Origin: Patescibacteria group bacterium
GTDB taxonomy: Bacteria; Patescibacteriota; Patescibacteriia; 2-01-FULL-39-33
Length of the DNA stretch: 58,146 nucleotides
NCBI GenBank assembly: GCA_041645075.1
Contig: JBAZQS010000004.1
Coordinates: 1-58,146, forward strand
Direction: 5' to 3'
The position numbers were made by a program, and so were the translations under genes. Of the stretch, positions 3,623 through 52,262 are shown piece by piece; within the stretch, counting starts at the first letter, position 1, and each line of letters opens with the position of its first letter. The notes under the pieces are model-generated. The model saw only the letters and a program-made list of their open reading frames with translations, searched no databases and was not told the DNA's origin.

Positions 3623-5830
3623 TTACAATTTCTTTCGCTTCAGCAACAGTGAATTAACCACCACCGAAACACTGCTTAACGCCATGGCCAAACCGGCAAA
3701 CTCGGCCCGCAACAACCCTAAGGCGGCAATAGGAATGCCGACGCTATTGTAAAATAAAGCCCAAAACATATTCTGTTTGATTTTGGCCAAAGTTTGCCGG
3801 CTTAGTTTAATCGCTTTAATCACATCTTGCAAATCATTTTTGATTAAAATAATGCCGCCGGTTTCAATGGCAATATCCGTGCCGGCTCCCATGGCAATGC
3901 CTAAATCCGCTTGGGCCAAAGCCGGCGCGTCATTAATGCCGTCGCCGACCATGGCCACCACCACCCGCCGCGGGCGGAAATTTTTCAATTCTCCTTGTTG
4001 CAGTTTTTTTATCTCTTTGGCTTTGTCCTCCGGCAGAACTTCGGCTAAAACCTCGTCAATGCCGACTTGACGGGCAATCGCTTGGGCGGTGCGCTGATTA
4101 TCACCGGTAATCATAATGGTTTTAATTTTTATTTTCTGCAATTGCTTTATGGCCGCGGCGGTCGTCTCTTTTAAAGTATCGGCCACGGCAATCAGGCCGA
4201 CGACATTTGAATCAATCGCGGCCACCATCACGGTTTTTCCTTCATTTTCTAAGCGGCTCTTATCTTCTTTAATATTAGCGGCCACGGCAATATTAAATTG
4301 CGCCATTAATTTTTCCGTGCCCACTAAAACATCTTGGCCCGTCACTTCGCCTTTGACGCCATGACCGGCAATGGCGGCGAAATTAGTCACGGACAATAAT
4401 TCTAAATTTTGTTCTTTAGCTTTTTTAACAATCGCTTCGGCCAAGGGATGCTCGGAGCGATTTTCCAATGAAGCCGTTAATTGTAAAATCTTATTTCGCG
4501 TTTGGCGTTTGGCGTTTGGCGCTTCAATAATGTCCGTAACTTCCGGTTGCCCCTTGGTTAAGGTGCCGGTTTTATCAAAGACAATGACTTGAATCTTATT
4601 AGCCGCTTCCAAGGGCTCGCCGCCGCGAATCAAAATGCCATTTTCCGCGCCTTTGCCCGTGCCCACCATAATGGCGGTGGGCGTGGCCAAGCCCAAAGCG
4701 CAAGGACAAGCAATCACCAATACCGCCGTAAAAGCAAGTAAAGCCGTCACAAAAGGCGAGAGAACCAAAAAATACCAACTGATAAAAGTAATCAAGCCCA
4801 AAGCGATAACCGCCGGCACAAAATAACCGGAGATTGTGTCCGCAAATTTCTGAATCGGCGCCTTACTGGCTTGAGCGTCTTCAACCACTCTGATAATTTG
4901 CGCCAAGACCGTGTCTTTGCCCACTTTGGTCGCCTTAAACTTAAAACTGCCGGTTTTATTAATGGTGGCGCCAACCACCGAATCCCCGATTTTTTTCTCC
5001 ACCGGAATGCTCTCGCCGGAAATCATTGACTCGTCAACACTGGAATAACCTTCCATCACTTGGCCGTCAACCGGAATTTTTTCGCCCGGCCGGACCATGA
5101 CCAAATCGCCGGGCGCCACTTCTTGAATCGGCACGTCAATTTCTCGGCCGTCCCTGACGACCCGGGCGGTTTTGGCTTGCAGGCCCATTAATTTTTTTAT
5201 GGCTTCGCCGGTTTTGCCTTTAGCCCGCGCCTCCAGCCACTTGCCCAAAATCACAAAAGTGATAAGCAAGGCCGAGGTCTCATAGAATATTTCACCCTTA
5301 ATTAAATAAGTGGTGGCCAAGCTGTAAAAATAAGCGGCGCTGGTGCCAATGGCGATTAGCGTGTCCATATTGGCCGTCTTGTTTTTAAACGCAAAATACG
5401 TGCCGCGGTAAAACCGCCAGCCAAAATAAAACTGAACAAGGCCGGCTAAAAGCGACTGGATAATTTTGCTTTGAAAAGAGGTATCGCGCAAAATCATGCT
5501 TAAAACCGCCACCGGCAAGGTCAAAATTAAACTGAAAATAAATATATTTCTTTCTTTTTTAATTTCTTTTTCGCGAAGGCCTTGGGCTTGATCAAGGGCC
5601 TCTTCGGTTTCGGTTACCGCCGCCGCCTCATAGCCACTGTCTTTGACGGCCGCGATAATTTCTGGCTCCTGGCCGACCTCGCCCTCACATTGAACAACGG
5701 CTTTCTGGGTGGCAAAATTAACCGTAACGTTTTTCACGCCCGGCAATTTTTTTAAATTATTTTCAATCGTTAAAGCGCAGGAAGCGCAATGCATGCCGGA
5801 AATATTGTAAGTGGTTTTTTTGTTTTCCAT
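3623..5830 (-). CDS. copA: copper-translocating P1B-type ATPase
   Basis: N-terminal HMA motif GMHCASC, CPC in a transmembrane helix, DKTGTLT phosphorylation site, GDGINDAP. Confidence 0.9.
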
Positions 5831-5854
5831 GTTTATAGCTTATTTATAATCATC

Positions 5855-6223
5855 TCATTCTACTATCAATTTGCCCTGATACATGCCCATATCGCAGGCA
5901 AAAATAAATTCGCCTTTCCCTGTCGGCGTAATTTCTATGGTCACGGTCCGACCCGCCGGCAATTCCCGCCGAATTTGCCAATCGGAAAAATTAACAAAGC
6001 GCGAGCACTCATTATCCTCTTGCCGAGTAAAATTAATCCTGATGGGTTCGCCCAGCTTGGCGCGGATAATATTGGGCGAATAGACCCCCTTGACGATAAC
6101 GTCAAAAACCTGGCGGCCGCCGCTTTCTTTGGCCGCGACCCCGGTTTGATTTTTAGTATACCAAAGCCACAGCCAAAAAAGAACGGCGACCATAATAATT
6201 AAAATAATGCCGATTAGTTGCAT
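5855..6223 (-). CDS. membrane-anchored cupredoxin-like domain protein
   Basis: N-terminal TM helix and C-terminal EFIFACDMGMYQGKLIVE (Cys/Met/His-type ligand region). It lies immediately upstream of copA, a common pairing. Confidence 0.6.
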   Translation of the reverse strand: MQLIGIILIIMVAVLFWLWLWYTKNQTGVAAKESGGRQVFDVIVKGVYSPNIIRAKLGEPIRINFTRQEDNECSRFVNFSDWQIRRELPAGRTVTIEITPTGKGEFIFACDMGMYQGKLIVE

Positions 6224-6242
6224 AAAAATTTTTAAATTAAAA

Positions 6243-6596
6243 TTAACAGCAATATAATTTATCCGGCATTTCCCCCGCCTTTATTTTGCCAAAAGGATTG
6301 CCGTATTTTCTGATGTTGGCAATCATCTCTTTATTGGCTTCGGTTTCTAGGCCCAACGCCACCATTTTCTGCCGGATGCTTTCTATTTCTAAATCATAAC
6401 CCAAGGGACAAATCACCCGGCAAGCGAGGCAAACCGTGCAGTGAGTATAAAATAATTCAGCCAATTTTTCATTGTCCTTTAAAATGGCCTTGCCTCTGGG
6501 CGAGACACTCTCATGCCTGACGAGCTTAAAAAATTCACAGGTCTCGCGGCATAATCCGCAACGGCTGCAGATATTTTTCTTTTTCTCTTCTGTCAT
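6243..6596 (-). CDS. 2x[4Fe-4S] ferredoxin-type subunit (GlcF N-terminal-like)
   Basis: Two Cys clusters, CSRCGLCRETC and CTVCLACRVICP. It overlaps the upstream gene by 4 nt. Confidence 0.6.
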   Translation of the reverse strand: MTEEKKKNICSRCGLCRETCEFFKLVRHESVSPRGKAILKDNEKLAELFYTHCTVCLACRVICPLGYDLEIESIRQKMVALGLETEANKEMIANIRKYGNPFGKIKAGEMPDKLYCC

Positions 6597-7759
6597 ATGA
6601 CTTTCCCCCGGTTAAATATCCCACTGGGGTCAAATTTATTTTTTAAGTCCCGCCGATATTTTAATTCAAGATTATCTAAAAATTGTTTCTTTTTCAAGCC
6701 GATGCCATGCTCACCGCTTACTTTTCCGCCCAATTGATTTACTAAAGCATACATTTCTTTTATTTTTTCTTTTTCCTCGGGTCTAAAATGGGGATGAAAA
6801 ATACCAACGCCAATGTGCCCGAAAACCGGCACGGCGTTTTTTGAAAACCAATCCAACATTTCTTTGACGCCGGACTCGGGCACTAAGGGGTCTTCAATAA
6901 TCGGATAACCGCTGCCAATCATTATGGGCGCGATGCCTTCTCTTTTATGCCAAAATTTTAACACCTCAACCTCGCTCTTATTAGGCCCCTCAATTTCCGC
7001 AAAAAGATAATATTTTTCTTCTAAACCCAGGCGCGAAGCGATCAGGGGAGAAATAAATTCTAAAGAAAGTAGGCCGGGAATTTTTTTCCAATTTCCAACC
7101 ATCGCCAATAAGTCGGCCACGTTATTACCGCTGGCCATAATCACATAGGTCTCTTCAATTTTATTAACGAGTTTTAATTTCATTTTTACCATTAAGCCAT
7201 TTAATCCTTCCGAGCCGACAATTTCTTTTATTTCATCGCCACTGATATTAATGATTTCGCCATTACCGTCCACCAGCCATAATTCCTCAACCCAATCGGA
7301 CATCCGGCCGAATTTTAACGACCAAATCCCGGCCGCATTGGTGGCGGCCATTCCGCCCAAAGTACAAACCGAGTGGCTGCCGGGAATCACGGGAAAAACT
7401 AAATTATATTTTTTTAAAAATTCATTAAGCTGATCTAAAACCACCCCCGGCTGGACCATGGCCGTCTTATCGTTCTCATTAACTTCAATAATTTGATTCA
7501 TTTTGGAAAAATCAATCACCAGGGAATTTTGCGGCACGCAACCGCCCACCAGTCCGGTACCGGCGCCCCGAGCCGCCAAATCAAGGCCTGATTTTTTTGC
7601 CTCCTCAATCACTTGAATAACCTCATCAATTGATTCCGGCCAGACGCAAAGCGCGGCCGAACCAACCACCCCGGAGGCGTCCGTGGAACAAGCCAGCAAG
7701 TCCTCATTATTATAAGAGGACTGGCAGTGGTTTAGTTTTTTAATTAATTCCGACACCAT
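6593..7759 (-). CDS. FAD-binding oxidoreductase (GlcD / D-lactate dehydrogenase family)
   Basis: FAD_binding_4-like region (ARGAGTGLVGG) and C-terminal GEHGIG motif. At 388 aa it is shorter than typical GlcD. Confidence 0.75.
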   Translation of the reverse strand: MVSELIKKLNHCQSSYNNEDLLACSTDASGVVGSAALCVWPESIDEVIQVIEEAKKSGLDLAARGAGTGLVGGCVPQNSLVIDFSKMNQIIEVNENDKTAMVQPGVVLDQLNEFLKKYNLVFPVIPGSHSVCTLGGMAATNAAGIWSLKFGRMSDWVEELWLVDGNGEIINISGDEIKEIVGSEGLNGLMVKMKLKLVNKIEETYVIMASGNNVADLLAMVGNWKKIPGLLSLEFISPLIASRLGLEEKYYLFAEIEGPNKSEVEVLKFWHKREGIAPIMIGSGYPIIEDPLVPESGVKEMLDWFSKNAVPVFGHIGVGIFHPHFRPEEKEKIKEMYALVNQLGGKVSGEHGIGLKKKQFLDNLELKYRRDLKNKFDPSGIFNRGKVI

Positions 7760-8445
7760 ATTAATTCTGATAATTCTAAAACCGCCAGATCACTGGGGGC
7801 ATTTTCCTTAAACTGAAGGTAGCACAATGGGCAGGGGCTGACCAATTTTTTCGTCTTGACTTGCGAGAGCACGTTGTTCGCCACTTTATTGGCCAAATCA
7901 GGATTATTGGTTTTAACCCCGCCACCGGCCCCGCAACACCGGCTCTTATCCAGGGCGCAAGGAAATTCAGCAATCTGATAGCCCATGTCCTTTAAAATTT
8001 TACGCGGTTCTTGATAGATGCCATTATATCGGCCCAAATGACAGGGGTCGTGATAAGTAATGGGTTGGGCCGACGGCCAAGCCGCCTTAATTTTTGAAAC
8101 TTTTTTAACTAATATTTCTGTTATGTGCTCAACTCTAAGGCCATAGTTATTCTTGAATATATTAAAACAGGCCGGGCAATTGGTAATAATTTTTGTGACA
8201 TTGTATTTTTTAAAAATGGCCAGATTTTTTTCTTTTAAATCAGCAAAGTCCTGCAAATAGCCGGCTTTAATCACCGGACTGCCGCAGCATAATTCCTTAT
8301 CCGGCAACATTATAAAATCAACGCCAATTTGGCGCAAAATTTTTTCGTACCGGCTTTGAATGTCGGGCAAAACCGTTTTAGTCAAACAACCGGGATAATA
8401 CAAAGTATTGCCGCCGATTATTTTCGCCATCACTTTTTTAAACAT
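7744..8445 (-). CDS. CCG-domain (Fe-S)-binding protein (GlcF C-terminal / LutA / HdrD-like)
   Basis: Two cysteine-rich CCG-type repeats: YYPGC..CCGSP..NCPAC and YHDPCHLGR..RCCGAGGG..PCPLC. Confidence 0.7.
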   Translation of the reverse strand: MFKKVMAKIIGGNTLYYPGCLTKTVLPDIQSRYEKILRQIGVDFIMLPDKELCCGSPVIKAGYLQDFADLKEKNLAIFKKYNVTKIITNCPACFNIFKNNYGLRVEHITEILVKKVSKIKAAWPSAQPITYHDPCHLGRYNGIYQEPRKILKDMGYQIAEFPCALDKSRCCGAGGGVKTNNPDLANKVANNVLSQVKTKKLVSPCPLCYLQFKENAPSDLAVLELSELIWCRN

Positions 8446-8454
8446 CTTAATTTT

Positions 8455-8754
8455 TTAACTACTTCGGCAAAATTTATTATGCAGCCAAGCCACCAATCCG
8501 GCTCCGATATAAGTATAAATTACGGCTTGCAACAAACCGGCGATAAAACCGCCAAAAGTTAATCTCACATCAGCGCCTTTTTCTAAATTAACCAAATGAA
8601 CCAACGAACCAAAAAGTTTTAAAGCCAAATCAGGCCACAAAGCCACAAAAACGGCGCAAAGCAGATAAATTACTCCGATCACGCCGGCCGCCGATAAGGC
8701 AAAACCCTGAACGTTAATTTGGCAATAATGTTTTTCGTTTTCCATAATTTTCAC
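8455..8754 (-). CDS. small membrane protein, unknown function
   Basis: 99 aa with 2-3 hydrophobic helices, 9 nt from the downstream gene. Confidence 0.45.
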   Translation of the reverse strand: MKIMENEKHYCQINVQGFALSAAGVIGVIYLLCAVFVALWPDLALKLFGSLVHLVNLEKGADVRLTFGGFIAGLLQAVIYTYIGAGLVAWLHNKFCRSS

Positions 8755-8800
8755 CCCCTTTATTAGAACCGGGTATTTTAGAAATATTTATTTAACCTCA

Positions 8801-8977
8801 TTAATGGCAACAACCGCCCTTTTTGCTGATTTGACTTACGCCGGCAATCTGGTTTTGTTCTTCATATTTTTTTAAACAGTTTTCCGAACAAAACTTTTCG
8901 CCGTAGCGGGAAATAAAACTTGGGGTGGCGGCCATACCGCAAATAGGACATTTTTTCTGCCTAAATAATTGAAACAT
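8801..8977 (-). CDS. small TRASH/YHS-like Cys-rich metal-binding protein (58 aa, below the ORF-track cutoff)
   Basis: Hand translation gives MFQLFRQKKCPICGMAATPSFISRYGEKFCSENCLKKYEEQNQIAGVSQISKKGGCCH. It has the CPxCGM...C..C pattern plus a C-terminal GGCCH, and fills a gap in a tightly packed operon. Confidence 0.5.
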   Translation of the reverse strand: MFQLFRQKKCPICGMAATPSFISRYGEKFCSENCLKKYEEQNQIAGVSQISKKGGCCH

Positions 8978-8990
8978 ATTTTATTTTATT

Positions 8991-9230
8991 TTATTTATTA
9001 ATTTCCTTTTTGATTTCTTCAAATTCTTTTTTGGTAATTTCACCCCTGGCATAACGTTGTTTTAAAATTTCTAACGGTTGGCCGCCGTTATTATTCTGAC
9101 CGCCAGTCGTTAATGCCTTAATCAACCAAATAATGGCGGAAATCACCAAAACCCAGAAAAAAACCATAAAAAACCAGCCTAGAATCATTGAACTCAAACT
9201 AAAACCGTAATCAAATGGCAGACCCATCAT
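8991..9230 (-). CDS. SHOCT-domain membrane protein
   Basis: N-terminal TM helix and C-terminal LEILKQRYARGEITKKEFEEIKKEI (SHOCT-like). Confidence 0.6.
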   Translation of the reverse strand: MMGLPFDYGFSLSSMILGWFFMVFFWVLVISAIIWLIKALTTGGQNNNGGQPLEILKQRYARGEITKKEFEEIKKEINK

Positions 9231-9408
9231 AAAATATTTCTCCTGACCGGCCAGCGGTTTTGGCGGCCGGATAAATTATTAATAATTTTAAGCATTTCCA
9301 CTCTGGTATTATAACAAGTTAAACAATAATATCAACCCCAGGGTAAATCCTCAAAGTTCAACCGAGCGCCTTTAACGGCGAGCGATTGCTTGGAGCGATT
9401 TTTTAATT

Positions 9409-9924
9409 TTACGGTCCGAATGGCTCCGGCGATCTGTTTTTATTGGCCTTAATAAAGTTCATAATAGCTGTCTCGTCAAATTGCTCAAGTTTCTGCAATC
9501 TGCCCCACGAGGCGAGGGCAATATGAGCGTCGTTTGCCCGCCGAGGCGTCACAATAATTTGGGAATTGGCTCGACCGATTTTTTCTAACGCCACTTTGGT
9601 CGCGTCATCAATTTCTTTGTAGGAAATCCAGACGCCGCCGTGCTCAAGATTATGTACCACCTGCTCATCGGGTAACTCGGTCTGATAGACCCCCCAATTG
9701 GCGGGTTGCGCATAGTGCCAGCCCGAGGTGGGAGGGTTGGAATTATAGGCCGGATGAGAGGCGCCGACAGAGATATGTTGTACGCCTAAAATAGGATGGG
9801 CCTGGCCTGGCCATTCTTGTCCGCCTGGTTGGCGCGACCAGATAATTAAACCATAAACGACTCCGATTATGGCCATGGGGCCGATAATCCACCACATCGT
9901 TTTTTGAATTTGATTTTTAGCCAT
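9409..9924 (-). CDS. DUF3105-domain exported protein
   Basis: N-terminal TM/signal anchor and the HNLEHGGVWISY motif typical of DUF3105 (from memory). Confidence 0.6.
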   Translation of the reverse strand: MAKNQIQKTMWWIIGPMAIIGVVYGLIIWSRQPGGQEWPGQAHPILGVQHISVGASHPAYNSNPPTSGWHYAQPANWGVYQTELPDEQVVHNLEHGGVWISYKEIDDATKVALEKIGRANSQIIVTPRRANDAHIALASWGRLQKLEQFDETAIMNFIKANKNRSPEPFGP

Positions 9925-10004
9925 AATTTTTTTATTTTGGGATATTAATTTATTTTTTGACCTTTAATTTTTGCAGATAATTATAAATACTAAGCGCGGC
10001 CTTG

Positions 10005-11270
10005 CTAAGTGAGCCAAATTAAAATAAGCAGGCCCAGAATTAACATGGTTAAAGCCGAAATTAGCCGCATCGTCTTGCTTTCCGACTGTTCCCATTGAGT
10101 TAAATGTTTAACCGCGACTTTATTGGCCGCCAAAAGCAAAATAATAATCAACGGCGCCACGAACATTAAATTATATAACAGCAGATAGCCGATACCGCCC
10201 CAGTAAGTGGTCTTGACCGCTAACAGGCCGATAATCGCCACATAGATGCCGCCGGAACAGGGAAAAGTGCATAAGCCGACCAGAAAGCCAAGAATAAACG
10301 CGGCCGGCAAAGTTGATTTATAAACCCACTTTTGAATTGTCTCTTTGCTATTGTGGGGAATCCGCAGTTTAATCGGAAAGCGCGGAAATAACTGGCCGAT
10401 TAAATTAATGACGCCCAAGCCAATGACTAACCAAGCGCCTAATTGAGCCATAAAATGCGGCGAATTGGTAAATAAAATTGCTTTTAAAAGACCAAAACCA
10501 ATCAGCAAATAAGCCAGATAAATCGCGGTGATATAGACCAAGCCCATTTGCCAAATCGCGGCGCGAGTTCTGCGCAAACTGAAAAGAAAAGCGATAAAAA
10601 AAAGCAAAACCGCGAAGGCGCAAGGATTAATGCCGTCTAAAAAGCCCGAAACCAAGACCACCGGCAATAAATTTTGGTATTTATTAAACTGATTTTTGAC
10701 TTTTTTAGTCAAAGATAGCTGGTCTTTGTTTTTTTCCAAATCAGTCAAATATTGGCCGATGGGCGCGTCAATCGGATAAGTCCTAATTTCGCCAGCGAAA
10801 TCATCGGCCCAAGCCGGTATGGCCCAAACCTGATAGGTCGTCGGACTGCCGTGCATTTCATCTTGATAAACAATCAGCCGTTTAAACTTTTGGCTATTTT
10901 CCGGCAAAAAAAGGTCTTTGATAATTTGCTCGGGAATATGGCCGGCTAAAATATATTGGTCGCCGATAAAAGTCATAATGTGGCTTTGCAAAGGCAAAGG
11001 CACGCCCAATTCAGTCATCAATTCATTTAATTCCGGCCGATTGCTCCGTTGGTTCAAATAGTCCTTTTTAACAAATTCGGTTATTCCTTGCTGGGTTAAG
11101 ACCTTTGGCAAATCATTATTAATATAAGCCGCGCACATGCCGCAGGCCTCGTTATAATAAATCAGGGCCTGGCTCTTGTTTAAGTGAGCGCTATGCGCCG
11201 AAACCAAAACCGGCGCGGCTAATAAAAACAGGGGGGTTAAAATTAAAAGACCAAAATTTTTTTTAATCAT
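10005..11270 (-). CDS. CcdA/DsbD_2-family thiol-disulfide transporter with N-terminal exported CGMC domain
   Basis: Signal peptide and YYNEACGMCAAY in a ~190-aa exported domain. The TM core has GINPCAF and TFPCSGG cysteines, as in CcdA/DsbD. Confidence 0.65.
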   Translation of the reverse strand: MIKKNFGLLILTPLFLLAAPVLVSAHSAHLNKSQALIYYNEACGMCAAYINNDLPKVLTQQGITEFVKKDYLNQRSNRPELNELMTELGVPLPLQSHIMTFIGDQYILAGHIPEQIIKDLFLPENSQKFKRLIVYQDEMHGSPTTYQVWAIPAWADDFAGEIRTYPIDAPIGQYLTDLEKNKDQLSLTKKVKNQFNKYQNLLPVVLVSGFLDGINPCAFAVLLFFIAFLFSLRRTRAAIWQMGLVYITAIYLAYLLIGFGLLKAILFTNSPHFMAQLGAWLVIGLGVINLIGQLFPRFPIKLRIPHNSKETIQKWVYKSTLPAAFILGFLVGLCTFPCSGGIYVAIIGLLAVKTTYWGGIGYLLLYNLMFVAPLIIILLLAANKVAVKHLTQWEQSESKTMRLISALTMLILGLLILIWLT

Positions 11271-11286
11271 AAATTTTAATCATAAA

Positions 11287-11793
11287 TTAAATTGAGGCCG
11301 GTCGGCCTTGATTGGTAATTTTAATATATTTAGACCATAAATAAATTATGCCGCCGAGATTAAATAAAATGCTGAATAAAAAAATATAGGGTTGATAGGC
11401 CCCGGCCAAAACCGCCAGACCGCTTAAGCCCAAAATAGGCAAAAAATTAGTTAAATGATGCAGGCAACAAGCAATCATGGTGGTGGTTGACACGCCGCCC
11501 GAAGCGGCCACCATTCCTCCGCCTTGTTTGATTTTTAAATGAATTAAACGAAAAAGAAACAACTGGAAAGCAAAACCAAAAATTAAAGGTAAAATAAAAT
11601 ACCAGCGGCTCTTAAAAAAATACCAGGGCGCGAGCAAACTCCCCATGCCTAAGGCCTGGACCGCGTAAAAAACCGCGCTAATCCCCAAGGCGCCAAAAAT
11701 TCCCCAAAAAAGCGGAGATGGGTTGCGGTTGCTCGCCGGCTTAATGGCTTCAATATTGTCTTTTGTTAAATTGTCTTTTACTAAAAAATTCAT
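11287..11793 (-). CDS. integral membrane protein with CC-LHH motif
   Basis: 168 aa with about 4 TM helices and the motif TTMIACCLHHLTNF. It overlaps the upstream gene by 4 nt (ATGA). Confidence 0.5.
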   Translation of the reverse strand: MNFLVKDNLTKDNIEAIKPASNRNPSPLFWGIFGALGISAVFYAVQALGMGSLLAPWYFFKSRWYFILPLIFGFAFQLFLFRLIHLKIKQGGGMVAASGGVSTTTMIACCLHHLTNFLPILGLSGLAVLAGAYQPYIFLFSILFNLGGIIYLWSKYIKITNQGRPASI

Positions 11794-12242
11794 TGGATAT
11801 TGAAAGTAAAATTTATCGTCTCGGTCAAACCCACGATTAATTGGCCGGAAAGTTCGCCGGTAAAAGTCATTATGGCTTGAAGATGATGGCCGCCGCTTTC
11901 GGCATTTAACATTTGATAATCGCTTGGTTTTTGTCCGGCCAAACTTGACCGTTCCTCGATTGTAAAAGTTGATAAATCATAAATATGGTTATTCAAGGAT
12001 AAGTCAATGATGGTCTGGCCATTTTCCTTTCGGACCTGGTCAATGGTAACTTCAATGCCGTCTTTGGCCAGGGTCAAGGGATTGGGAACCGACTCTCGGT
12101 TATCAGCTATGGCCTCATTGGCGTTGGTGACAATCGTGGTTTTTTTATTATTCTGATTAAAAAGACCGGCCCATAAAGCGATAACGGCGATGAGCAGGAC
12201 AAGGCCTGATAAAATTAAAATCATAATAAATTTCTTTTTCAT
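11790..12242 (-). CDS. exported hypothetical protein
   Basis: 150 aa with an N-terminal signal anchor and a beta-rich-looking remainder. Confidence 0.5.
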   Translation of the reverse strand: MKKKFIMILILSGLVLLIAVIALWAGLFNQNNKKTTIVTNANEAIADNRESVPNPLTLAKDGIEVTIDQVRKENGQTIIDLSLNNHIYDLSTFTIEERSSLAGQKPSDYQMLNAESGGHHLQAIMTFTGELSGQLIVGLTETINFTFNIQ

Positions 12243-12257
12243 GGTATTTTTAAAAAA

Positions 12258-12758
12258 TTAAACCGCCGGCGGTTTGACCGAGCAGGTTAAATTTTTAATA
12301 ATATTTTTCAGGGTTAAAAAAATAGCCAAAGCCAAAAAAATTAAACTCAAGGCCTTAATTTCTAAGCCCTGAAAAGGCAAAGAAAATAAAGCCAAAGGGA
12401 ATCCCATTAGCGCCAATAACGGCGCCCCGCAAGACGGACAGCCGGAAGCTAAGATTCCGCCGGCGGCCCCGCCCAGAGCGGCTAACCGACTGGTGGCGGT
12501 GTTTTTGCTTCTGATTAATTGATAATGAAAAATTAACAGGGATAAATAAAGACCGAAGAAAACACTGATAACTAGACCGAAAAAAATTGAAACCGCCGTG
12601 TAAAATTGACCGTTCATATCGGCATAAACCAATAAACTTTTTTGATAAACATTAACCACGGTCAAGTAATAACTGATGAGGCCAAAAATTAACGCGGTTA
12701 TTAGGGCGATGGCCGAATACCTTTTTCGCTTTAAAATCAACCAGATAATTTTGAGCAT
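12258..12758 (-). CDS. integral membrane protein with CPSCG motif
   Basis: 166 aa with about 4 TM helices and the motif ILASGCPSCGAPLLALMG. Confidence 0.5.
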   Translation of the reverse strand: MLKIIWLILKRKRYSAIALITALIFGLISYYLTVVNVYQKSLLVYADMNGQFYTAVSIFFGLVISVFFGLYLSLLIFHYQLIRSKNTATSRLAALGGAAGGILASGCPSCGAPLLALMGFPLALFSLPFQGLEIKALSLIFLALAIFLTLKNIIKNLTCSVKPPAV

Positions 12759-12772
12759 ATATCAAAGTTCAA

Positions 12773-13291
12773 TTATTTGACTACATTGGCGGTAATAATC
12801 AAAGCGCTGGCCGCATTATTTTTGCCGTCATCGTTGGTAGAAAAATTAATTTGACGGGTAATTTGACCGGTCGCGTCCGGACCATGGGCGTTGGGGTCAA
12901 AAATCACTTCCAAATTCGCGCTCTGGCCGGGCGGCAGTTTCGTTGACCAAAAAGCGGGGTTGGTCCCGTGACCGGACATGCCAAAAACCGGACTTTTTTC
13001 GCCCTTAATTTCTAAAACAACCGTGGTGCACATACAAGAGGTGCTGATATTGGAAATTTTTAAATCCGCGTCGCCTTCATTTTTTAAAACAAAATTCTTT
13101 TTCACCAAGCCCCGAGCCATAGAAACATCGCCAAAATCATAACGGGTGGATTCAATGACTAATTTTGCCGTTCCGGCCTGACCGGAATCGGAATTTAAAT
13201 TAGCGACCACGCCTACGGTAATGCCCCCGACAAGGAGAACCACGGCGCTAATAATTAAAATTTTCAAGCGATTATTGTTTGTTTGAGCCAT
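12773..13291 (-). CDS. DUF1573-domain exported protein
   Basis: Signal anchor; an FGDV...N.G...L.I..ISTSCMCTT pattern, as in DUF1573 (ASH/Ig-like fold). Confidence 0.65.
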   Translation of the reverse strand: MAQTNNNRLKILIISAVVLLVGGITVGVVANLNSDSGQAGTAKLVIESTRYDFGDVSMARGLVKKNFVLKNEGDADLKISNISTSCMCTTVVLEIKGEKSPVFGMSGHGTNPAFWSTKLPPGQSANLEVIFDPNAHGPDATGQITRQINFSTNDDGKNNAASALIITANVVK

Positions 13292-13299
13292 AAATTTTT

Positions 13300-13318
13300 G
13301 AGATGGTTACAAAACTAT
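13300..13318. repeat. GAGAT-family motif (single arm)
   Basis: GAGATGGTTACAAAACTAT is identical to the left TIR of the 177-bp element. It lies 8 nt upstream of the 13291 start codon. Confidence 0.55.
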
Positions 13319-13319
13319 T

Positions 13320-13829
13320 TTATTTTTTAATAACCTTGGCCCGAAGTTCAACTTCGGCCTCGGGCTTTTGGGAATCGTTAGATTTAATATAAACCACGCG
13401 GACAATTTCGCCCAAATCCATATCGTCTTGGTGAACCGCCGGGTCAAAAGTTACCGACATTTCCGCGCTTTGGCCCGGAGCGATAATTTTGTCATTTTCG
13501 GCCATGGTCGCTTTGGTGCAACCGCAAGAAGTTGAAAGACGCAAAATTTCTAAGGGCTGGTTGCCGGCATTGGCAATGGTAAAAGTTTTTTGGGCAATCT
13601 CGCCGTAAATTACCGTACCCCAGTCAAAAGCGGCGGGCGTAATTTGAATGGCTGGTCCTTGGCTTAAATTTTGATTGGCGGAATTTTCATTGGCCTCTGA
13701 ATTGTCCGTTGAGTTCAGGTTGTTAACCGCGGCCGCCTGATTATAGGTGCGATAAATACCCAAAGCCAAAGCCACTAACACGACTAAGGCCAAAAAAAAT
13801 AAAATAATTTTATTAGACATATTTTTCAA
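13320..13829 (-). CDS. DUF1573-domain exported protein (paralogue)
   Basis: FDWGTV...NAGNQPLEILRLSTSCGCTKA, the same architecture as 12773-13291. Confidence 0.65.
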   Translation of the reverse strand: MKNMSNKIILFFLALVVLVALALGIYRTYNQAAAVNNLNSTDNSEANENSANQNLSQGPAIQITPAAFDWGTVIYGEIAQKTFTIANAGNQPLEILRLSTSCGCTKATMAENDKIIAPGQSAEMSVTFDPAVHQDDMDLGEIVRVVYIKSNDSQKPEAEVELRAKVIKK

Positions 13830-13859
13830 AAGTTAAAAAGATGAGGTAATAAAATTATT

Positions 13860-14735
13860 CTATTGAGCCGGTGCCGCATTAGCCGGCGGCGGCGGTTGAA
13901 CTGCGGTAGCCGGTTGAACTGCGGTATTGGTAATTAGATTATAATAGACCCCCATCTGTTTAACGCCCTCGCGAAAAACATAGGTTCCGTCGCTTTCAAC
14001 CGTGCCGACTTGAGACCAAATACTTTTAAGCGCCGGATAGGCCTCAACATCGCCCTTTAAAATAAAAGTCGGCAATAATTTAATTTTATATTTATCAACC
14101 AATTTCAGGCCATCGGGCAGGGTGGCGTCCACCACTTGGCTGTTATCAGTCAAAATCCCAAAACGCGGCAAAATTTGCTCATGCTCGGTCACATCATAAC
14201 AGGTCGGGCATCGCTTATCGGCGATTAAAATTAACTCAACTAAACCCTTGATTTCGCCCGAACTGACCAAAAGGTAGGGGGCGCTGACATTTCTTAAAAT
14301 AAAAGTGTCACTATTTTTAATCTCGCCGATTTTTGTCCACAAATTTTTAAGGCCCTCGCTTTTATTAAGCTCGCCCTTCACAATAAGAGCCGGTATTTTG
14401 TCAATCTGATACTGACTGATTAAGGCCTTGGCTTCCGGACTGGCCGAATCAATGTTTCTTTCTGATTTGGTCTTAATGTTTTCTTTTTTGATTAAATCAA
14501 TAATCGGCGTCAGACCGGCGCATTGTTGGCAGTTGGCGTCAATAATGGTAATTAATTCTAAATCGGCCGGCCGAGCCGCTTCTCTGGTGGCCGCTAATTT
14601 TTTACTTAATAACCAATCAGTCCGCCCCCCAACCACCACGGCCACGCTCAAGCTGATAAAAATTATCAGTCCCAAACCAAAAATCAACCAGGTCTTGATT
14701 TCCATATTTAATTCTTTAATCGGGCGCTTTAACAT
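13860..14735 (-). CDS. membrane-anchored double thioredoxin-like protein
   Basis: N-terminal TM helix and two CxxC motifs (CQQC, CPTC), each followed by similar sequence (KIPALIVKGE / LLPTFILKGD). Pro/Ala-rich tail. Confidence 0.55.
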   Translation of the reverse strand: MLKRPIKELNMEIKTWLIFGLGLIIFISLSVAVVVGGRTDWLLSKKLAATREAARPADLELITIIDANCQQCAGLTPIIDLIKKENIKTKSERNIDSASPEAKALISQYQIDKIPALIVKGELNKSEGLKNLWTKIGEIKNSDTFILRNVSAPYLLVSSGEIKGLVELILIADKRCPTCYDVTEHEQILPRFGILTDNSQVVDATLPDGLKLVDKYKIKLLPTFILKGDVEAYPALKSIWSQVGTVESDGTYVFREGVKQMGVYYNLITNTAVQPATAVQPPPPANAAPAQ

Positions 14736-14755
14736 AAAATTAAAATAATATAAAA

Positions 14756-15040
14756 TTAGCAGCCACCCACCATATTGGGTAGGTTTTGCACCTGGCCGGG
14801 CAAAGCATTGCCGCTGGGGCTACCGGCCGCGTCCGCGGCTTTAATCACGGCTCCACCTTTGACTTTGCTGTAAATCGTGGCGGATTGCACGGCCTGAATC
14901 ACGGAAAAAACCGTTAAAACGACCAAAACCGCGCTCACCATAGAACTGCCGAATTTTAGCCGATGCTTGCTTTTTTTATTCAAATGCAACCCATCTAAAA
15001 TTTCCGTTTTGATTTTTTCTAATTCCGATTTTGGTTCCAT
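14756..15040 (-). CDS. small membrane-anchored protein ending in LPNMVGGC
   Basis: 94 aa with one TM helix. The C-terminus QVQNLPNMVGGC is shared with the upstream neighbour. Confidence 0.5.
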   Translation of the reverse strand: MEPKSELEKIKTEILDGLHLNKKSKHRLKFGSSMVSAVLVVLTVFSVIQAVQSATIYSKVKGGAVIKAADAAGSPSGNALPGQVQNLPNMVGGC

Positions 15041-15079
15041 GTTTTTGTTTATTAATAATTATTTATCCGTAATTAATTT

Positions 15080-15832
15080 TTAACAGCCGCCCACCATATT
15101 GGGCAGACCTTTAATATCCGAGGGTAGCGGCGCGCTTTGACTGCCTTTGCCATAATCGGGTAGTTTCATGCCTAAAAGCAGTGAGGCGACATCGGGCGTA
15201 AAATTAGCGCCTTGCAATTGGCTGGTTATTTTTTGAATCATTTGTTTGGGAAAATACAGCCCTTTCCAGCGCGCCAATTCCCGCAGCATTTCATCGTCGG
15301 TATATTCACTATTGTGATTTTTAATCAGATAAGCCAATAAGCCGCGCATGGCTTGGGAATGAGCGCAACCGCAAGCGGCTTGGCCATCCTCCCGAATTAA
15401 TGAGGTGGCGCCGCAGCAATATTCGCAAGCAATTTTTAAACCGATATTAATATAACGTTGCAAATCCTGGTCCGCCAAGACGATTTTTTGACTGCCATAA
15501 GTGGGGTCAAACTGTTTTATCACATTCATGGCCGGCTCAACCTGGTCAAAAGAAACGGCTAACTCCGCGCCGTAAATTTCGGGCGTTCCTTGAGCCATGG
15601 CTAATTTAATGGCGTCTTGAGAAATATCGCCGCTTAAAGCGACGCCACTGCCCCCGCCCGAACCAAGCGCGCCCGCAATTTTACTAATGGGATTGTTGCT
15701 AAGGCCAAGATTTTTATAAATTTTACCCAAAATAATTTGGTTAATCCCGAAAGAGAACAATAAAACAATTAACAAAACGAGATTAACGACCGCTAAAGAA
15801 GCTCGGGCCGGTTGCTGGCTGGAGAAAAACAC
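15080..15832 (-). CDS. membrane-anchored Cys-cluster protein ending in LPNMVGGC
   Basis: 250 aa with an N-terminal TM helix, the cluster CEYCCGATSLIREDGQAACGCAHS and the C-terminus KGLPNMVGGC. Confidence 0.55.
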   Translation of the reverse strand: MFFSSQQPARASLAVVNLVLLIVLLFSFGINQIILGKIYKNLGLSNNPISKIAGALGSGGGSGVALSGDISQDAIKLAMAQGTPEIYGAELAVSFDQVEPAMNVIKQFDPTYGSQKIVLADQDLQRYINIGLKIACEYCCGATSLIREDGQAACGCAHSQAMRGLLAYLIKNHNSEYTDDEMLRELARWKGLYFPKQMIQKITSQLQGANFTPDVASLLLGMKLPDYGKGSQSAPLPSDIKGLPNMVGGC

Positions 15833-15866
15833 AAATTTTAAATTATTATTAAATTAAAAAATAAAT

Positions 15867-15887
15867 CCTACTATGCAGTGTAGTAGG
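15867..15887. promoter_or_regulatory. candidate BlaI-type operator (CCTACTA-N7-TAGTAGG)
   Basis: Perfect 7-7-7 inverted repeat 35 nt upstream of the 15832 start codon, in the only >100-nt gap of the cluster. Confidence 0.4.
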
Positions 15888-15938
15888 AGAATTAACCTTT
15901 GTCAAATTTACTTATCCACAGGTTTAAAAATTTTAGAA

Positions 15939-16982
15939 TTACTCACAACTGGTCATGGGCGAGCGATAGCTATTCTGGCATTCATGGCTGGCCGGCAGCG
16001 CCAAACACTGGCGCGAAGAGGCCTGAATTTCCACCAGCGGGCAAGAATTAACATCGACCCCATAAGAATAAGAGGAGGCGTCCAAAGGCGAGAATAAAAC
16101 AAAAAATACGGGCAGAGTTAAAAGCAATAATAAAGCAAAAACAAAATAGCGAGAAAAAATCCGTAAAGGCAGGTGGTAGCGGCGATCGGCTAATTTATTA
16201 ATCCTTTCTTCGGTGATTAAGCCAAAAAAGGAAAGCGCCAAATGCCCTTGAACTATTTTATTTTCTTTTATCTTTATTATTTTGTACAGGGCCCGGGCTA
16301 AGGGAATTTGACTTTTAAGGCGAGCGATGGCTTTCTCATCGGCGGCTAATTCGGAGAAAATCAAATATTGTTTGGTTAAAAATTTTAAACCCGGAAAAAA
16401 GAAGCAAGCCCTATTAATGACCTTGACCATAAAAAGCCGACGGGGCTCGCCCACCAGCGCGTGGTGCCGCTCATGGCTTAAAACCGCCATTAATTCTCGG
16501 ACGGTGAGTTCTTTAACTAAAGCGGAAGAAAGGCAAATCTTTGGTTTAATGAAGCCAAAACAAAAAACTATTGGCTGCTCACTGGCGATTTCCACCAAAC
16601 GATCATTGAGTTTCAACTTTTCCGCCACGGATTTTAATTTTAAAGATAACTGTGGTTTTTGATTTTTCAATTGGCTTTTGACAAATTTAGCGGTGGCCAG
16701 ATTCAAGTGGATAATCTTAAACAAAAACAGGATTAAAAGACTAAAAATGCCAAGGGTTAAAATAATAATCCCGCTAAAAATTAAAGGATGGTTGGCAAAA
16801 ATAAAATGATGAGCGCAGCCGCACGCCATCTCTAATCGGCCGGCCAGCGATCTAACGGCGGCCATGGCTGGGGGCAGAAGTTTGATAAAAATAAAAATAA
16901 TTATCGCTAAAAAACTTAAACCTAAAATTAAAATTTGGTAAAAAATCAAATTCGCTTTTTGGTTTAAATTAATTTGCCTCAT
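15939..16982 (-). CDS. BlaR1/MecR1-type M56 (M48-like) zinc-peptidase sensor
   Basis: Multiple TM helices and the HEXXH motif LSHERHHAL. It follows a BlaI-family gene by 18 nt. Has a CGCAHH motif and a Cys-rich C-terminal tail. Confidence 0.7.
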   Translation of the reverse strand: MRQINLNQKANLIFYQILILGLSFLAIIIFIFIKLLPPAMAAVRSLAGRLEMACGCAHHFIFANHPLIFSGIIILTLGIFSLLILFLFKIIHLNLATAKFVKSQLKNQKPQLSLKLKSVAEKLKLNDRLVEIASEQPIVFCFGFIKPKICLSSALVKELTVRELMAVLSHERHHALVGEPRRLFMVKVINRACFFFPGLKFLTKQYLIFSELAADEKAIARLKSQIPLARALYKIIKIKENKIVQGHLALSFFGLITEERINKLADRRYHLPLRIFSRYFVFALLLLLTLPVFFVLFSPLDASSYSYGVDVNSCPLVEIQASSRQCLALPASHECQNSYRSPMTSCE

Positions 16983-17000
16983 AGATTTTTAACGAGTTAA

Positions 17001-17405
17001 CTAACGGCGGGCCAAGACCTTTTTTAATTTTTTTTGCCATTCGGCTAATTTTTTTGAGTCGCTGGTTTCCAAAAAATCAATAAATTGAGCCACCCCCACT
17101 TCGCCAAAAGTCCTGATTAAATTAGTCACCGCCTTTTTTGAAGTGGCCGCCAAAAAATCTTCCTTGCCTTGGGCCGGATGATAAATATAAGCCCCGTCAT
17201 CATTGAGTCGGCGCTTCAAAATGCCTTTTTCAAACAAACGCGACATTACGGTCATAATAGTGGTATAGGCGATTTTTCGGCTCTTTTTTAAACGGCTAAA
17301 AACTTGGCGCACCGAGACCTGGTTTAATTCCCAAATCACTCCCATCACATCGGCCTCTAAGGTGCCCAAGGGCTGTTTTAATTGTTCAATCTTATTTATT
17401 TTCAT
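17001..17405 (-). CDS. BlaI/MecI/CopY-family winged-helix repressor
   Basis: 134 aa. LEADVMGVIWELNQVSVRQV...YTTIMTVMSRLFEKG is the typical Penicillinase_R fold. There is no C-terminal CxC metal site. Confidence 0.8.
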   Translation of the reverse strand: MKINKIEQLKQPLGTLEADVMGVIWELNQVSVRQVFSRLKKSRKIAYTTIMTVMSRLFEKGILKRRLNDDGAYIYHPAQGKEDFLAATSKKAVTNLIRTFGEVGVAQFIDFLETSDSKKLAEWQKKLKKVLARR

Positions 17406-17429
17406 AAATATTTTTAATACAAGTAATTA

Positions 17430-17449
17430 TACTACACTACATAGTAGTA
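17430..17449. promoter_or_regulatory. candidate BlaI-type autoregulatory operator (TACTAC-N8-GTAGTA, inner ACTAC-ATA-GTAGT)
   Basis: Inverted repeat 25 nt upstream of the repressor start codon. It shares CTAC/GTAG half-sites with 15867-15887. Confidence 0.4.
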
Positions 17450-17500
17450 ATTTACCTGAAAAAAATAACCGTGTCAAGAGCGGCTTGTCAAGCGTAAAAA

Positions 17501-17527
17501 TAGGGACCAGCCGCGACCCGTCCCTAT
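17501..17527. terminator. bidirectional intrinsic terminator after groEL
   Basis: The ATAGGGAC ... GTCCCTAT stem is flanked by an A-run on one side and a T-run on the other. Confidence 0.6.
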
Positions 17528-17540
17528 TTTTATAAAATAT

Positions 17541-17600
17541 TTTTTCATGCCATAGGCAGATCCCATGCCAGAGGCAGGCGCAGCGCCTCTAGCGGAAAAT
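17541..17600. repeat. short repeat module in the groEL 3' UTR (second copy inside the GT4 gene at 21672-21709)
   Basis: TTTTTCaTGCCATAGGCAGAtCC ... GCGGAAAAT is shared with 21672-21709. This copy carries an extra 28-nt hairpin (AGAGGC..GCCTCT) nested in the middle. Confidence 0.55.
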
Positions 17601-17601
17601 T

Positions 17602-19245
<1,644 letters not shown>

Positions 19246-19301
19246 TTATTTATATTTTTATTTTTTATTATAACTTTCAGTAATTTTGTTATTGAAAATT
19301 T

Positions 19302-19577
19302 TTACTCAATTACCGCCAAAATATCCTCATAATTTAATATTTTGTATTCCTCTTCATTGATTTTAAATTCCTCGCCGGAATATTTGCCGAATAAAATCTT
19401 TTGCCCGACCTTAAGGCCGAGCTTGGCCACTTTTTCGCCGTTGCCAATATCTAAAATTTCGCCCTCGGCTTTTTTCTCTTTGTCAACCGTATCGGGCAGG
19501 ACAATGCCGGATTTGGTTATTTCCTGTTCTTTGGCCGGCTTGACCAAAACCCGGTCGCCAATTGGTTTGATGCTCAT
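19302..19577 (-). CDS. groS: co-chaperonin GroES
   Basis: 91 aa, IKPIGDRVLVKP...GIVLPD. Confidence 0.95.
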   Translation of the reverse strand: MSIKPIGDRVLVKPAKEQEITKSGIVLPDTVDKEKKAEGEILDIGNGEKVAKLGLKVGQKILFGKYSGEEFKINEEEYKILNYEDILAVIE

Positions 19578-48002: not shown

Positions 48003-48161
48003 AAAAAATATTTGATTTAATGTCTTAATTCTAATCAATTTGAAAATAATTTTCAAGTTCTTGCTATTTGACAAAAAACATCAAAAACGATAGAGTTGGA
48101 GCACTTACATCAGTAATGCTCTTTTTATAAAGAGTTAAAAAAAATAGGAGGTCTAAAAAAC

Positions 48162-48734: not shown

Positions 48735-48807
48735 GACGCCCATAAAGGAATACATTTAGTGAAGTAGAATTGAAAATTGAATTCTAAATCCGAAAGGAGA
48801 ACTAATA

Positions 48808-49824: not shown

Positions 49825-49851
49825 GCTCATTAATTCACTAAATAAAAATCC

Positions 49852-49880
49852 AAGCCATCCAACAAAACGGATGGCTTTTA
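49852..49880 (+). terminator. intrinsic terminator after purC
   Basis: AAGCCATCC-loop-GGATGGCTT followed by TTTAAA. Confidence 0.55.
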
Positions 49881-49999
49881 AACTTCAGCGGATAAAACGT
49901 GGAATCGGCAAATGGGCCAGACAATTGACACTAATTGAAATTTAATATAAGATACTCTATTGGATTCATTTTAATTTTATAATCTCAAAAATATTTCTT

Positions 50000-51151: not shown

Positions 51152-51182
51152 AAAAAAGTGATTTATACTGGATAGAGGTAAT

Positions 51183-51242
51183 GTCGCTCGGGCCAGTAGC
51201 TCCCGCCTCGACTCGCGGAGTCGACGCGAGGCGGGAAGCGAC
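51183..51242. repeat. G+C-rich nested hairpin in an AT-rich spacer
   Basis: Outer stem GTCGCT/AGCGAC, a 13-nt 5' bulge, CCCGCCTCG/CGAGGCGGG, and inner GACTC-GCG-GAGTC. Confidence 0.5.
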
Positions 51243-52080: not shown

Positions 52081-52087
52081 ATTTTGT

Positions 52088-52163: not shown

Positions 52164-52174
52164 TATAAAAATTT

Positions 52175-52247: not shown

Positions 52248-52262
52248 TTGAAAAATTAATAA

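Follow-up and report, generated by a model that had tools for sequence, protein, structure and literature searches.

What holds together a long run of genes that opens with a repressor and protease of the BlaI/BlaR1 type, continues through a series of cysteine-bearing envelope proteins and closes on a copper pump? The question is raised by positions 3623 to 17449 of contig JBAZQS010000004.1 (GenBank assembly GCA_041645075.1), which belongs to a Patescibacteria group bacterium; we analysed the whole 58,146-nt stretch that contains them, hereafter the window. An earlier note on this DNA had described a single-strand run of about 25 genes and had taken it for one regulon, from the repressor to copA, devoted to thiol-redox and soft-metal (copper, possibly mercury or silver) handling in the envelope. 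The listing of open reading frames (ORFs) gives 20 genes, named here A to T, and every one of them is indeed on the minus strand, from 17405 down to 3623. We consider, with a rough probability of 0.55, that the locus encodes a regulated-proteolysis switch set over cysteine-bearing surface proteins, next to a copper efflux module, and that the cluster probably protects the cell surface from copper. The comparisons behind this reading cover 82 loci, 80 of them fetched from species-representative genomes that encode a relative of protein C; the proteins of the window were compared with all ORFs of these loci using phmmer.

The first two genes encode the putative switch. A (17001-17405) is a BlaI/MecI-type winged-helix repressor of 134 amino acids that matches Penicillinase_R (PF03965) above its cut-off (E 4.8e-23) and has Mycobacterium tuberculosis Rv1846c (2G9W), BlaI and MecI as top matches in the PDB. 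Its best-conserved stretch includes Q107-F108, which aligns with N101-F102 of MecI, which we take to be the known N-F cleavage site. A contains no cysteine, and its score with the CopY_TcrY model TIGR02698 is 43.5 bits against a cut-off of 122; CopY-like cysteines were not found in the archaeal repressors either. B (15939-16982) is a membrane zinc protease of the M56/M48 type (HERHH, 347 amino acids), with a match to Peptidase_M56 (PF05569) at E 4.8e-15 and 55.9 bits for a cut-off of 31. It lacks the penicillin-binding sensor domain: the blaR1_generic model is covered over profile positions 105-319 of 585, with 22 bits against a cut-off of 400. The cysteines of B lie in a CxC of the first outside loop and, four of them, in an outside C-terminal tail of about 50 residues. 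Among 40 homologues, HExxH is kept in all, C56 in 39, C54 in 32 and the four tail cysteines in 27-33.

Two palindromes link this pair to the genes behind it. Operator O1, TACTACTATGTAGTGTAGTA (17430-17449; core TACTAC-N..-GTAGTA), sits 24 nt upstream of the ATG of A and begins at the last -10 base of a promoter-like site, TTGACA-17-TAAATT (17477-17449). Operator O2, TACTACACTGCATAGTA (15869-15885), lies in the 106-nt gap between B and C, where it overlaps the -10 (TACACT) of another TTGACA-17 promoter-like site (15905-15877). The pattern TACTA-N(1-12)-TAGTA has just these two occurrences in 58 kb, for 0.03 expected, and its core is the 17-bp TACTAC-N5-GTAGTA. The same palindrome is found at the same two positions in about 35 Patescibacteria loci: the position upstream of A homologues is occupied in about 30 loci, and that of O2 (in the B-C gap, or ahead of a DsbA-like gene where one is inserted) in about 35. 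Because the conserved operator is present on two promoters, we take A to be the repressor of its own promoter and of that of C and the genes behind it. Hence, the A/B pair is predicted to control these genes through the conserved operator, and the predicted BlaI/M56 regulon spans 17405 to about 9409, with L probably the last gene of the operator-controlled unit. In three loci, extra perfect TACTAC-N5-GTAGTA operators occur several kilobases off the cluster (L024:1114, L038:3793, L039:3441), near an rmuC-like gene and, for the L024 copy, just upstream of an ORF resembling nucleoside 2-deoxyribosyltransferases; the genes at these distant sites may be further members of the regulon.

The claim of a single regulon from repressor to copA is supported for this operator-linked part only, and not for the remainder, from the SHOCT gene M to CopA. 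No TACTAC operator occurs downstream of O2, and M is preceded by a promoter-like site without such an operator (TTGATA-16-TGnTATAAT, 9335-9308 on the minus strand, 11/12 matches), which suggests that the SHOCT-to-CopA unit probably has its own promoter. The relatives, moreover, give the TRASH-cupA-copA part its own CsoR-family repressor gene, so its placement inside the same regulon was not upheld. The sequence TACCCTGGGGT at the SHOCT promoter, tried as a CsoR box, was rejected because the loose pattern is no commoner than chance; its spacer is shorter than that of the ATACCC-N5-GGGTAT boxes of L001, L004 and L014. Two elements stand out in the 5' leader of the SHOCT gene: a 16-bp AT palindrome without mismatches, AAATTATTAATAATTT (9273-9288), and behind it a GC hairpin, CCGGCC..GGCCGG (9247-9270). 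These may be the binding site of another regulator or a leader structure.

The conservation of the locus in other genomes is what raises it above chance. Since the first 48 kb or so of the window have nearly all their genes on the minus strand, co-directionality is weak evidence for a functional unit. The evidence comes from gene order, cysteine motifs and operator, which are conserved beyond this genome. In the bacterial loci with enough flanking sequence, A is found upstream of C (within 3.5 kb) in 26 of 40, together with B in 25 of these, and downstream of C lie D in 30 of 39 and E in 34 of 39, which bears out the neighbourhood expected by the earlier note. H, J, K, F, G and I are often present in the related loci, and many loci consist of A, B, C, D, E and H alone. 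The note would have given up the cluster as a functional unit had its cysteine motifs not been conserved in homologues; they are kept in 80-100%. The archaeal loci come from Woese-, Micr-, Iain-, Nanohalo- and Aenigmarchaeota and from AR10. There, C is accompanied by a divergent A (sometimes with B), then by D and/or E, K, J, a CupA-like gene and CopA. The sequence TACTAC-N5-GTAGTA was not found in the archaeal loci; the region between their divergent A and C genes holds a palindrome of its own, TGTAAAGCTTTACA or TTTACA-N5-TGTAAA, with TATA-like boxes on either side. These comparisons indicate that the core of A, B, C, D and E is conserved in Patescibacteria and in DPANN archaea. Many contigs with the Patescibacteria-type cluster (L003, L005, L006, L009 and others) are deposited as metagenome-assembled genomes of 'uncultured Gammaproteobacteria', 'Candidatus Udaeobacter' or 'Methanosarcinales', and are probably mislabelled or mis-binned records.

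Which signal would such a switch read? Judging from the genes and regulators that accompany C, copper is the best-supported cue. A CPC-type CopA lies at most 10 kb from C in about 19 of the 82 loci, six of them archaeal, for a chance rate that we estimate at about 2% if genomes measure about 1 Mb. A CupA-like gene with CxMxM is present in 13 loci. Where the downstream flank reaches at least 8 kb, a P-type ATPase is encoded in 21 of 42 loci and a CupA-like protein in 14 of 42. Pfam searches confirmed CsoR-family genes in 16 of the 82 loci. They head the N-CupA-CopA part in loci resembling the window (L004, L036, L006, L007). In four others, from Peribacteria and Peregrinibacteria (L049, L050, L057) and from Veblenbacteria (L065), A and B are absent and a CsoR with the Cys-His-Cys Cu(I) fingerprint is encoded immediately ahead of C. 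Behind C come varying subsets of E, F, G, K, I and J, and the run ends in CopA in L050, L057 and L065. A canonical Cu(I) sensor thus replaces the BlaI/M56 pair before the same genes, and this regulatory evidence is the strongest for copper. Of the soft metals named in the earlier note, copper is therefore retained, given the CupA homologue, the linkage to CopA and the CsoR of the relatives, and mercury is not, since MerA, MerP and MerR are all missing.

Some of the regulators and pumps in these loci deviate from the copper types. The CsoR-family repressors of L001:20104-20379, L004:18494-18781, L014, L016 and L019 bear the fingerprint Cys-His-His (YC..NHLxxH), to which some add MHGH at the N-terminus, and three of the Cys-His-His genes are preceded by ATACCC-N5-GGGTAT boxes. 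This fingerprint is unlike the Cys-His-Cys Cu(I) type, and their metal specificity may therefore differ. The P-type ATPases encoded by the cluster in L014:3967-6315, L019:16429-18492, L029:15878-18166 and L067:14780-17011 have CPD, CPM or CPH instead of CPC, and no HMA domain.

The putative targets begin with proteins to which no function had been assigned, as the earlier note had stressed: C, D, H, I and J belong to no Pfam or NCBIfam family, and relaxed Pfam scans of D, H, I and J with their homologues gave no consistent family. C (15080-15832) is a cysteine-rich, N-terminally anchored extracytoplasmic protein of 250 amino acids, with an invariant CEYCCG..ACGCAHSQAMRG and a C-terminal LPxMVGGC tail; all six cysteines and H158 are invariant across 18 diverse members. 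Its relatives are found in 467 species representatives. The family is a tight one: it comprises more than 2000 clusters at 90% identity, which are uniformly annotated 'hypothetical' and contain no Pfam domain, but only 269 clusters at 50% identity, among 1.84 billion representatives. Neither the sequence search nor the fold search of the PDB, the latter made with a confident AlphaFold2 (AF2) model of predicted local distance difference test (pLDDT) score 87, gave a match for C, and on this model its fold is predicted to be novel. One member of the family (P0284, 456 amino acids) has a signal peptide and a fused FKBP-type prolyl isomerase domain, and keeps the ...MPNMVGGC tail. In five loci (L017, L026, L028, L031, L033; e.g. 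L033:8935-9765) an extra gene stands behind the operator and ahead of C; its product is a membrane-anchored DsbA-like protein of about 275 amino acids with a single-cysteine CP(Y/F)G and a C-terminal ...GGCGG tail.

D (14756-15040, 94 amino acids) is little more than a tail: a cytoplasmic N-terminus, one transmembrane (TM) helix and a short outside part with the same LPNMVGGC end as C. The ...LPxMVGGC tail is found on C and D in bacteria and archaea alike. All 52 complete D homologues have a cysteine among their last six residues, and the terminal cysteine column is kept in 53 of 54 aligned sequences. A cysteine so close to the C-terminus (last six residues) is likewise present in 80 of 81 C, 8 of 8 N, 23 of 32 H, 16 of 39 B and 10 of 32 J sequences, against 49 of 565 other long ORFs of the loci. 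E (13860-14735) is membrane-anchored and has two CxxC motifs (CQQC and CPTC) that are kept in 56-57 of 57 homologues. Its matches to Thioredoxin_3 and PDO_seleno_TRX are sub-threshold, it reaches 23.5 bits for a cut-off of 185 with TIGR02187, and its top PDB matches, 1J08 and 1A8L, are protein disulfide oxidoreductases (PDOs) found weakly (E about 0.04). These matches suggest that E resembles the archaeal PDO, with a double thioredoxin fold.

The genes that follow, up to L, encode further envelope proteins. F (13320-13829) and G (12773-13291) are anchored, immunoglobulin (Ig)-like DUF1573 proteins (PF07610; E 8.6e-18 and 4.1e-14, or 64.6 and 52.8 bits for a cut-off of 26), with an invariant STSCxCT and a conserved DP..H; their DUF1573 domains also match the OS_HP2 (seleno)protein family. 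H (12258-12758) is a four-TM protein with CPSCG, in which GCPxCG lies in the third helix and a further cysteine at the cytoplasmic C-terminus. Its CPxC is kept in 32 of 34 homologues, its gene directly follows E in many loci, and the order A B C D E H is seen in at least 10. The AF2 model of H (pLDDT 76) matched no PDB fold; H had been considered as a DsbB- or VKOR-like protein, a candidate dropped on this result. I (11790-12242) is an anchored exported protein of 150 amino acids with an invariant GHH. J (11287-11793), a four-TM protein with CCLHH, has a vicinal CCxH in a TM helix; it is present in 27 bacterial and 8 archaeal loci, and CC.H is kept in 35 of 36 sequences. K (10005-11270) joins a CGMC domain to a CcdA/DsbD-type transporter: an outside N-terminal domain with CxxC..H..GHxP is fused to a six-TM core with NPC and FPC cysteines, and these membrane cysteines are kept in 33 of 36 homologues. 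The transporter matches are all sub-threshold (ArsG 4e-9, DsbD 6e-4, SfLAP 7e-4), as are those of the N-terminal domain to DUF411 (PF04214), found in 15 of 16 members with a best E of 6e-4. The top PDB match of the latter is a DUF411 protein (6WIS, E 0.009), and its CxxC stands where CopG has CxCC; the outer domain of K may thus be a distant CopG/DUF411-like, thioredoxin-like domain. L (9409-9924) is an anchored DUF3105 protein (E 2.6e-28) that was seen in 4 other loci.

The remaining genes form the copper module and an insert within it. M (8991-9230), a SHOCT membrane protein, N (8801-8977), a TRASH/YHS-like cysteine peptide of 58 amino acids, and O (8455-8754), a two-TM DUF5676 protein, are accessory genes that recur near cupA-copA in relatives; N adjoins CsoR and CupA in L004, L036 and L007. 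N has CPIC..(16)..CSENC, to be compared with the TRASH/YHS pattern CxxC-x(19-22)-CxxxC, and ends in GGCCH, with matches to YHS (E 0.06) and DUF2116 (E 8e-4) that are both under the cut-offs. S (5855-6223) is a membrane-anchored cupredoxin of the CupA type. It matches Cupredoxin_1 (E 1.9e-19) and pneumococcal CupA (PDB 4F2E/2MRY, E 7.7e-17), with Cys73, Cys110, Met112 and Met114 aligned to the Cu(I) ligands, and the Cys..CxMxM motif is present in 15 of 17 ORFs of this family in the related loci. T (3623-5830) scores 629 bits with the copper-ATPase model TIGR01511 (cut-off 397) and has one N-terminal HMA domain (GMHCASC), CPC, N-x6-YN-x4-P and M-x2-SS-x5-N. We take the P1B-1 signature to be CPC in TM6, N-x6-YN-x4-P in TM7 and M-x2-SS-x5-N in TM8; T is thus predicted to be CopA, a P1B-1 exporter of Cu(I)/Ag(I).

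Between O and S lie P (7744-8445), a CCG protein (CCG twice), Q (6593-7759), a GlcD-like FAD dehydrogenase, and R (6243-6596), a ferredoxin with 2x[4Fe-4S]. Together these mutually overlapping genes make up a split 2-hydroxyacid dehydrogenase of the GlcD/GlcF type. Its subunits come in a permuted order (CCG, FAD, ferredoxin), the ferredoxin ending in ...LYCC, and the host lineage is reported to lack respiratory chains. P, Q and R were found in none of the 82 loci, even where N, S and T directly follow K (L004, L036), and Q has no close relative in metagenome contigs. Their absence from all the loci marks them as a lineage-specific local insert, outside the conserved system; the earlier note had counted them in the regulon.

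As for the run as a whole, all of the motifs quoted in the note are present: CGCAHH, LPNMVGGC (twice), two CxxC, STSCGCT/STSCMCT, CPSCG, CCLHH, CGMC and CPICGM..GGCCH. Most of its domain calls were recovered above the curated thresholds of Pfam and NCBIfam (Penicillinase_R, Peptidase_M56/M48, DUF1573 in two genes, DUF3105, SHOCT, DUF5676, CCG, FAD_binding_4 with FAD-oxidase_C, Fer4, Cupredoxin_1, and E1-E2 ATPase with HMA); those of thioredoxin, CcdA/DsbD and TRASH/YHS had sub-threshold matches only. TM segments are predicted in 15 of the 20 products. The close packing that had been described, with gaps mostly of 9-46 nt and several 4-nt overlaps, applies to 13 of the 19 junctions as regards the gaps; there are three overlaps, of 4, 16 and 4 nt, and three larger gaps: that between B and C, K-L (80 nt) and L-M (178 nt). 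Directly upstream of the run, on the same strand, are groES-groEL (17602-19577); a 70-amino-acid ORF between groEL and the repressor (17474-17686) shares sequence with both the promoter and the stop region of groEL and seems spurious. Rfam models matched only tRNAs in the window, elsewhere than in the cluster. At about 48.1 kb minus-strand genes give way to plus-strand ones (45330-48074 minus, 48162-48734 plus), GC skew changes sign at about 48-52 kb and its cumulative minimum is near 50 kb. The flip and the skew at 46000-54000 are the pattern expected of a replication origin, which accounts for the one-strand left part of the window.

Taken together, and by analogy with BlaI/BlaR1 and PetR/PetP, these elements suggest a mechanism. 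In unstressed cells, A would occupy both sites and block the -10 elements of two promoters, one serving A and B and the other C, D, E, F, G, H, I, J, K and probably L. Binding of Cu(I), or copper-driven oxidation, at the outside CxC loop and four-cysteine tail of B would activate its cytoplasmic HExxH domain; activated B would cleave A near Q107-F108, and both promoters would open. Every induced protein would be either outward-facing or membrane-spanning. C and D would present a flexible C-terminal thiol (...MVGGC), and F and G a CxC on an Ig-like fold. E would be a disulfide oxidoreductase with two CxxC, acting in disulfide repair, and K would combine its CopG-like domain with a CcdA-type channel that brings cytoplasmic reducing power outward; H and J would add small cysteine-bearing membrane proteins. 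The set would capture Cu(I) on the cell surface and maintain the thiols there in the reduced state, or return them to it, next to a unit (SHOCT, TRASH-like peptide, DUF5676, CupA and CopA) that would export cytoplasmic Cu(I).

Several observations weigh against this reading. B has its CxC in place of the conserved methionine pair of PetP, a cyanobacterial protease discussed below, so that copper sensing by B is argued by analogy only. There is no CsoR gene in the 58-kb window and no TACTAC operator before copA. The assignments to DUF411, PDO and CcdA are all under curated thresholds. E, K and the selenoprotein-related DUF1573 proteins fit general thiol-redox work equally well, and the FKBP fusion of one C-family member points to protein folding. 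The last two points lead to the main rival, to which we give a minor but real share of the probability: a general system for extracytoplasmic thiol-redox work or oxidative protein folding, in which C, D, E, H and K form, rearrange or reduce the disulfides of surface proteins in organisms devoid of quinones. B would then sense thiol oxidation, caused by oxygen, peroxide or disulfide stress, and not copper, and the link to copA would reflect only that copper is one of several thiol oxidants. The PDO-like E with its two CxxC, the CcdA/DsbD cysteines of K, a DUF1573 match to a selenoprotein family, as is typical of redox proteins, the DsbA-like gene directly behind the operator in five loci and a sensor made up entirely of cysteines would all suit such a system. 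It accounts less well for the CsoR with a Cu(I) fingerprint that replaces A/B in four genomes and for the CupA, CopA, TRASH-like and CopG-like parts that recur nearby, and the fold search gave C and H no likeness to DsbB, VKOR or Erv. The copper and thiol-redox readings overlap, because copper stress is thiol stress.

Other explanations have much less in their favour. The response could be to another soft metal, mercury or silver, with the vicinal cysteine pair of J and the CPxC of H as thiol relays of the MerT/MerC type; the CC pair does lie within a TM helix, P1B-1 pumps export Ag(I) too and HMA-type motifs are present. We find this unlikely: MerA, MerB, MerP and MerR are absent from the window and from the loci, J and H match no Mer model, and CupA and CsoR are copper-specific partners. 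It is very improbable that the genes form no unit and are unrelated membrane-protein genes co-oriented by the strand bias of the genome. Such a bias exists, with the first 48 kb of the window almost all on the minus strand, and P, Q and R are unrelated inserts, but order, cysteine motifs and operator are kept across dozens of genomes and two domains of life. The comparisons contradict the absence of a unit for A-K and leave it a possibility for L-R only. The least credible reading is that of a classical BlaI/BlaR1 sensor of beta-lactams serving an antibiotic response. Both Pfam families match, but B, with its 347 residues, lacks the whole penicillin-binding domain, there is no gene for a beta-lactamase or PBP2a, and the TACAnnTGTA box is absent; the missing sensor domain excludes beta-lactam sensing. 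Sensing of the CopY type was likewise rejected, given the cysteine-free A and the absence of the cop box, TACAnnTGTA, which has 0 occurrences in the window.

If the copper-responsive switch is real, it would be of interest beyond this genome. A large part of microbial diversity belongs to bacteria of the candidate phyla radiation (CPR) and to DPANN archaea, which live attached to other cells and, to our knowledge, have neither respiratory chains nor most of the redox systems known from envelopes. For these organisms, the locus yields a compact regulon with a predicted operator, a predicted sensor, conserved surface proteins and a tie to copper. Five of the surface-protein families are unannotated, one of them with a new predicted fold, and the operator offers an immediate means of tracing the regulon through complete genomes. 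The switch would be a second, cysteine-based case of copper sensing by a BlaR1-type protease, and would show how quinone-free organisms keep surface thiols working under copper stress. The C/D/E/H core has a realistic chance of being an envelope thiol/copper machinery of a new kind. A bolder version, which we put forward tentatively and think rather doubtful, sees in C and D a new surface machinery specific to ultra-small episymbionts and spread by gene transfer between CPR and DPANN: membrane-tethered proteins with free thiol tails (...MVGGC-COOH) would serve as a swinging-arm relay for Cu(I) or for the exchange of disulfides, centred on a new Cys/His-rich fold, recharged by the double-thioredoxin protein and the CcdA-type channel and read by a cysteine-based M56 sensor. 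Were such a relay confirmed, it would amount to a thiol/copper chemistry of the envelope that does without quinones and for which model organisms offer no counterpart. The searchable literature on DUF1573, DUF3105, BlaR1 with copper, and CPR/DPANN with copper holds no description of the cluster.

Parts of the system resemble known ones. In the copY-cupA-copA operon of Streptococcus pneumoniae, CupA is the homologue of S, which has the same Cu(I) ligands and is likewise encoded directly ahead of CopA, and CopY belongs to the repressor family of A (PMC5646241). The absence of cysteines in A makes metal sensing through the CxCxxxxCxC motif of CopY impossible, the TACAnnTGTA operator is lacking here and that of A does not precede cupA-copA, and the pneumococcal CopA has a cupredoxin N-terminal domain where T has an HMA domain. 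The cop operons controlled by CsoR resemble the four relatives described above, in which a CsoR heads the C/E/F/G/K set; the window differs in having no CsoR gene. The functional scheme is similar to that of the Scs proteins (ScsB/ScsC/ScsD), in which a membrane protein of the DsbD superfamily reduces Cu(I)-binding, disulfide-isomerising envelope proteins of the thioredoxin fold and thereby confers copper tolerance (PMC8900818). However, C, D and H have no detectable homology to Scs proteins, K is a CcdA-sized protein with a CopG-like domain and not a full ScsB, and the regulation is different. BlaI/BlaR1 and MecI/MecR1 of Staphylococcus aureus share with A and B the winged-helix repressor, the M56 zinc protease, the autoregulation by a palindromic operator and, in MecI, the cleavage site aligned with the conserved Q107-F108. 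They differ in their penicillin-binding sensor domain, and here the repressor gene comes first and the operator is other than TACAnnTGTA.

The closest precedent is PetR/PetP of the cyanobacterium Synechocystis sp. PCC 6803, a BlaI/M56 pair without a sensor domain, in which PetR is degraded upon copper addition and whose site is GAC-N5-GTC (PMC7896320; bioRxiv 10.1101/2020.07.31.226407). Compared by their description, the two systems have in one operon a BlaI-type repressor gene followed by the gene of a sensor-less M48/M56 protease, candidate metal ligands in a short outside loop just ahead of the protease domain, and an inverted repeat with a 5-nt spacer (GAC-N5-GTC in theirs, a TAC-N5-GTA core here). 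The candidate ligands are two methionines in PetP, whereas B has the CxC and the four-cysteine C-terminal tail. PetR doubles as an activator, and the PetRP regulon consists of plastocyanin, cytochrome c6 and two small proteins, where ours would consist of cysteine-bearing envelope proteins; no gene for plastocyanin or cytochrome c6 (the petE/petJ targets) is found among the products of the run. The regulatory logic is thus of a known type, and the sensor chemistry, the target genes and the distribution in CPR and DPANN are new.

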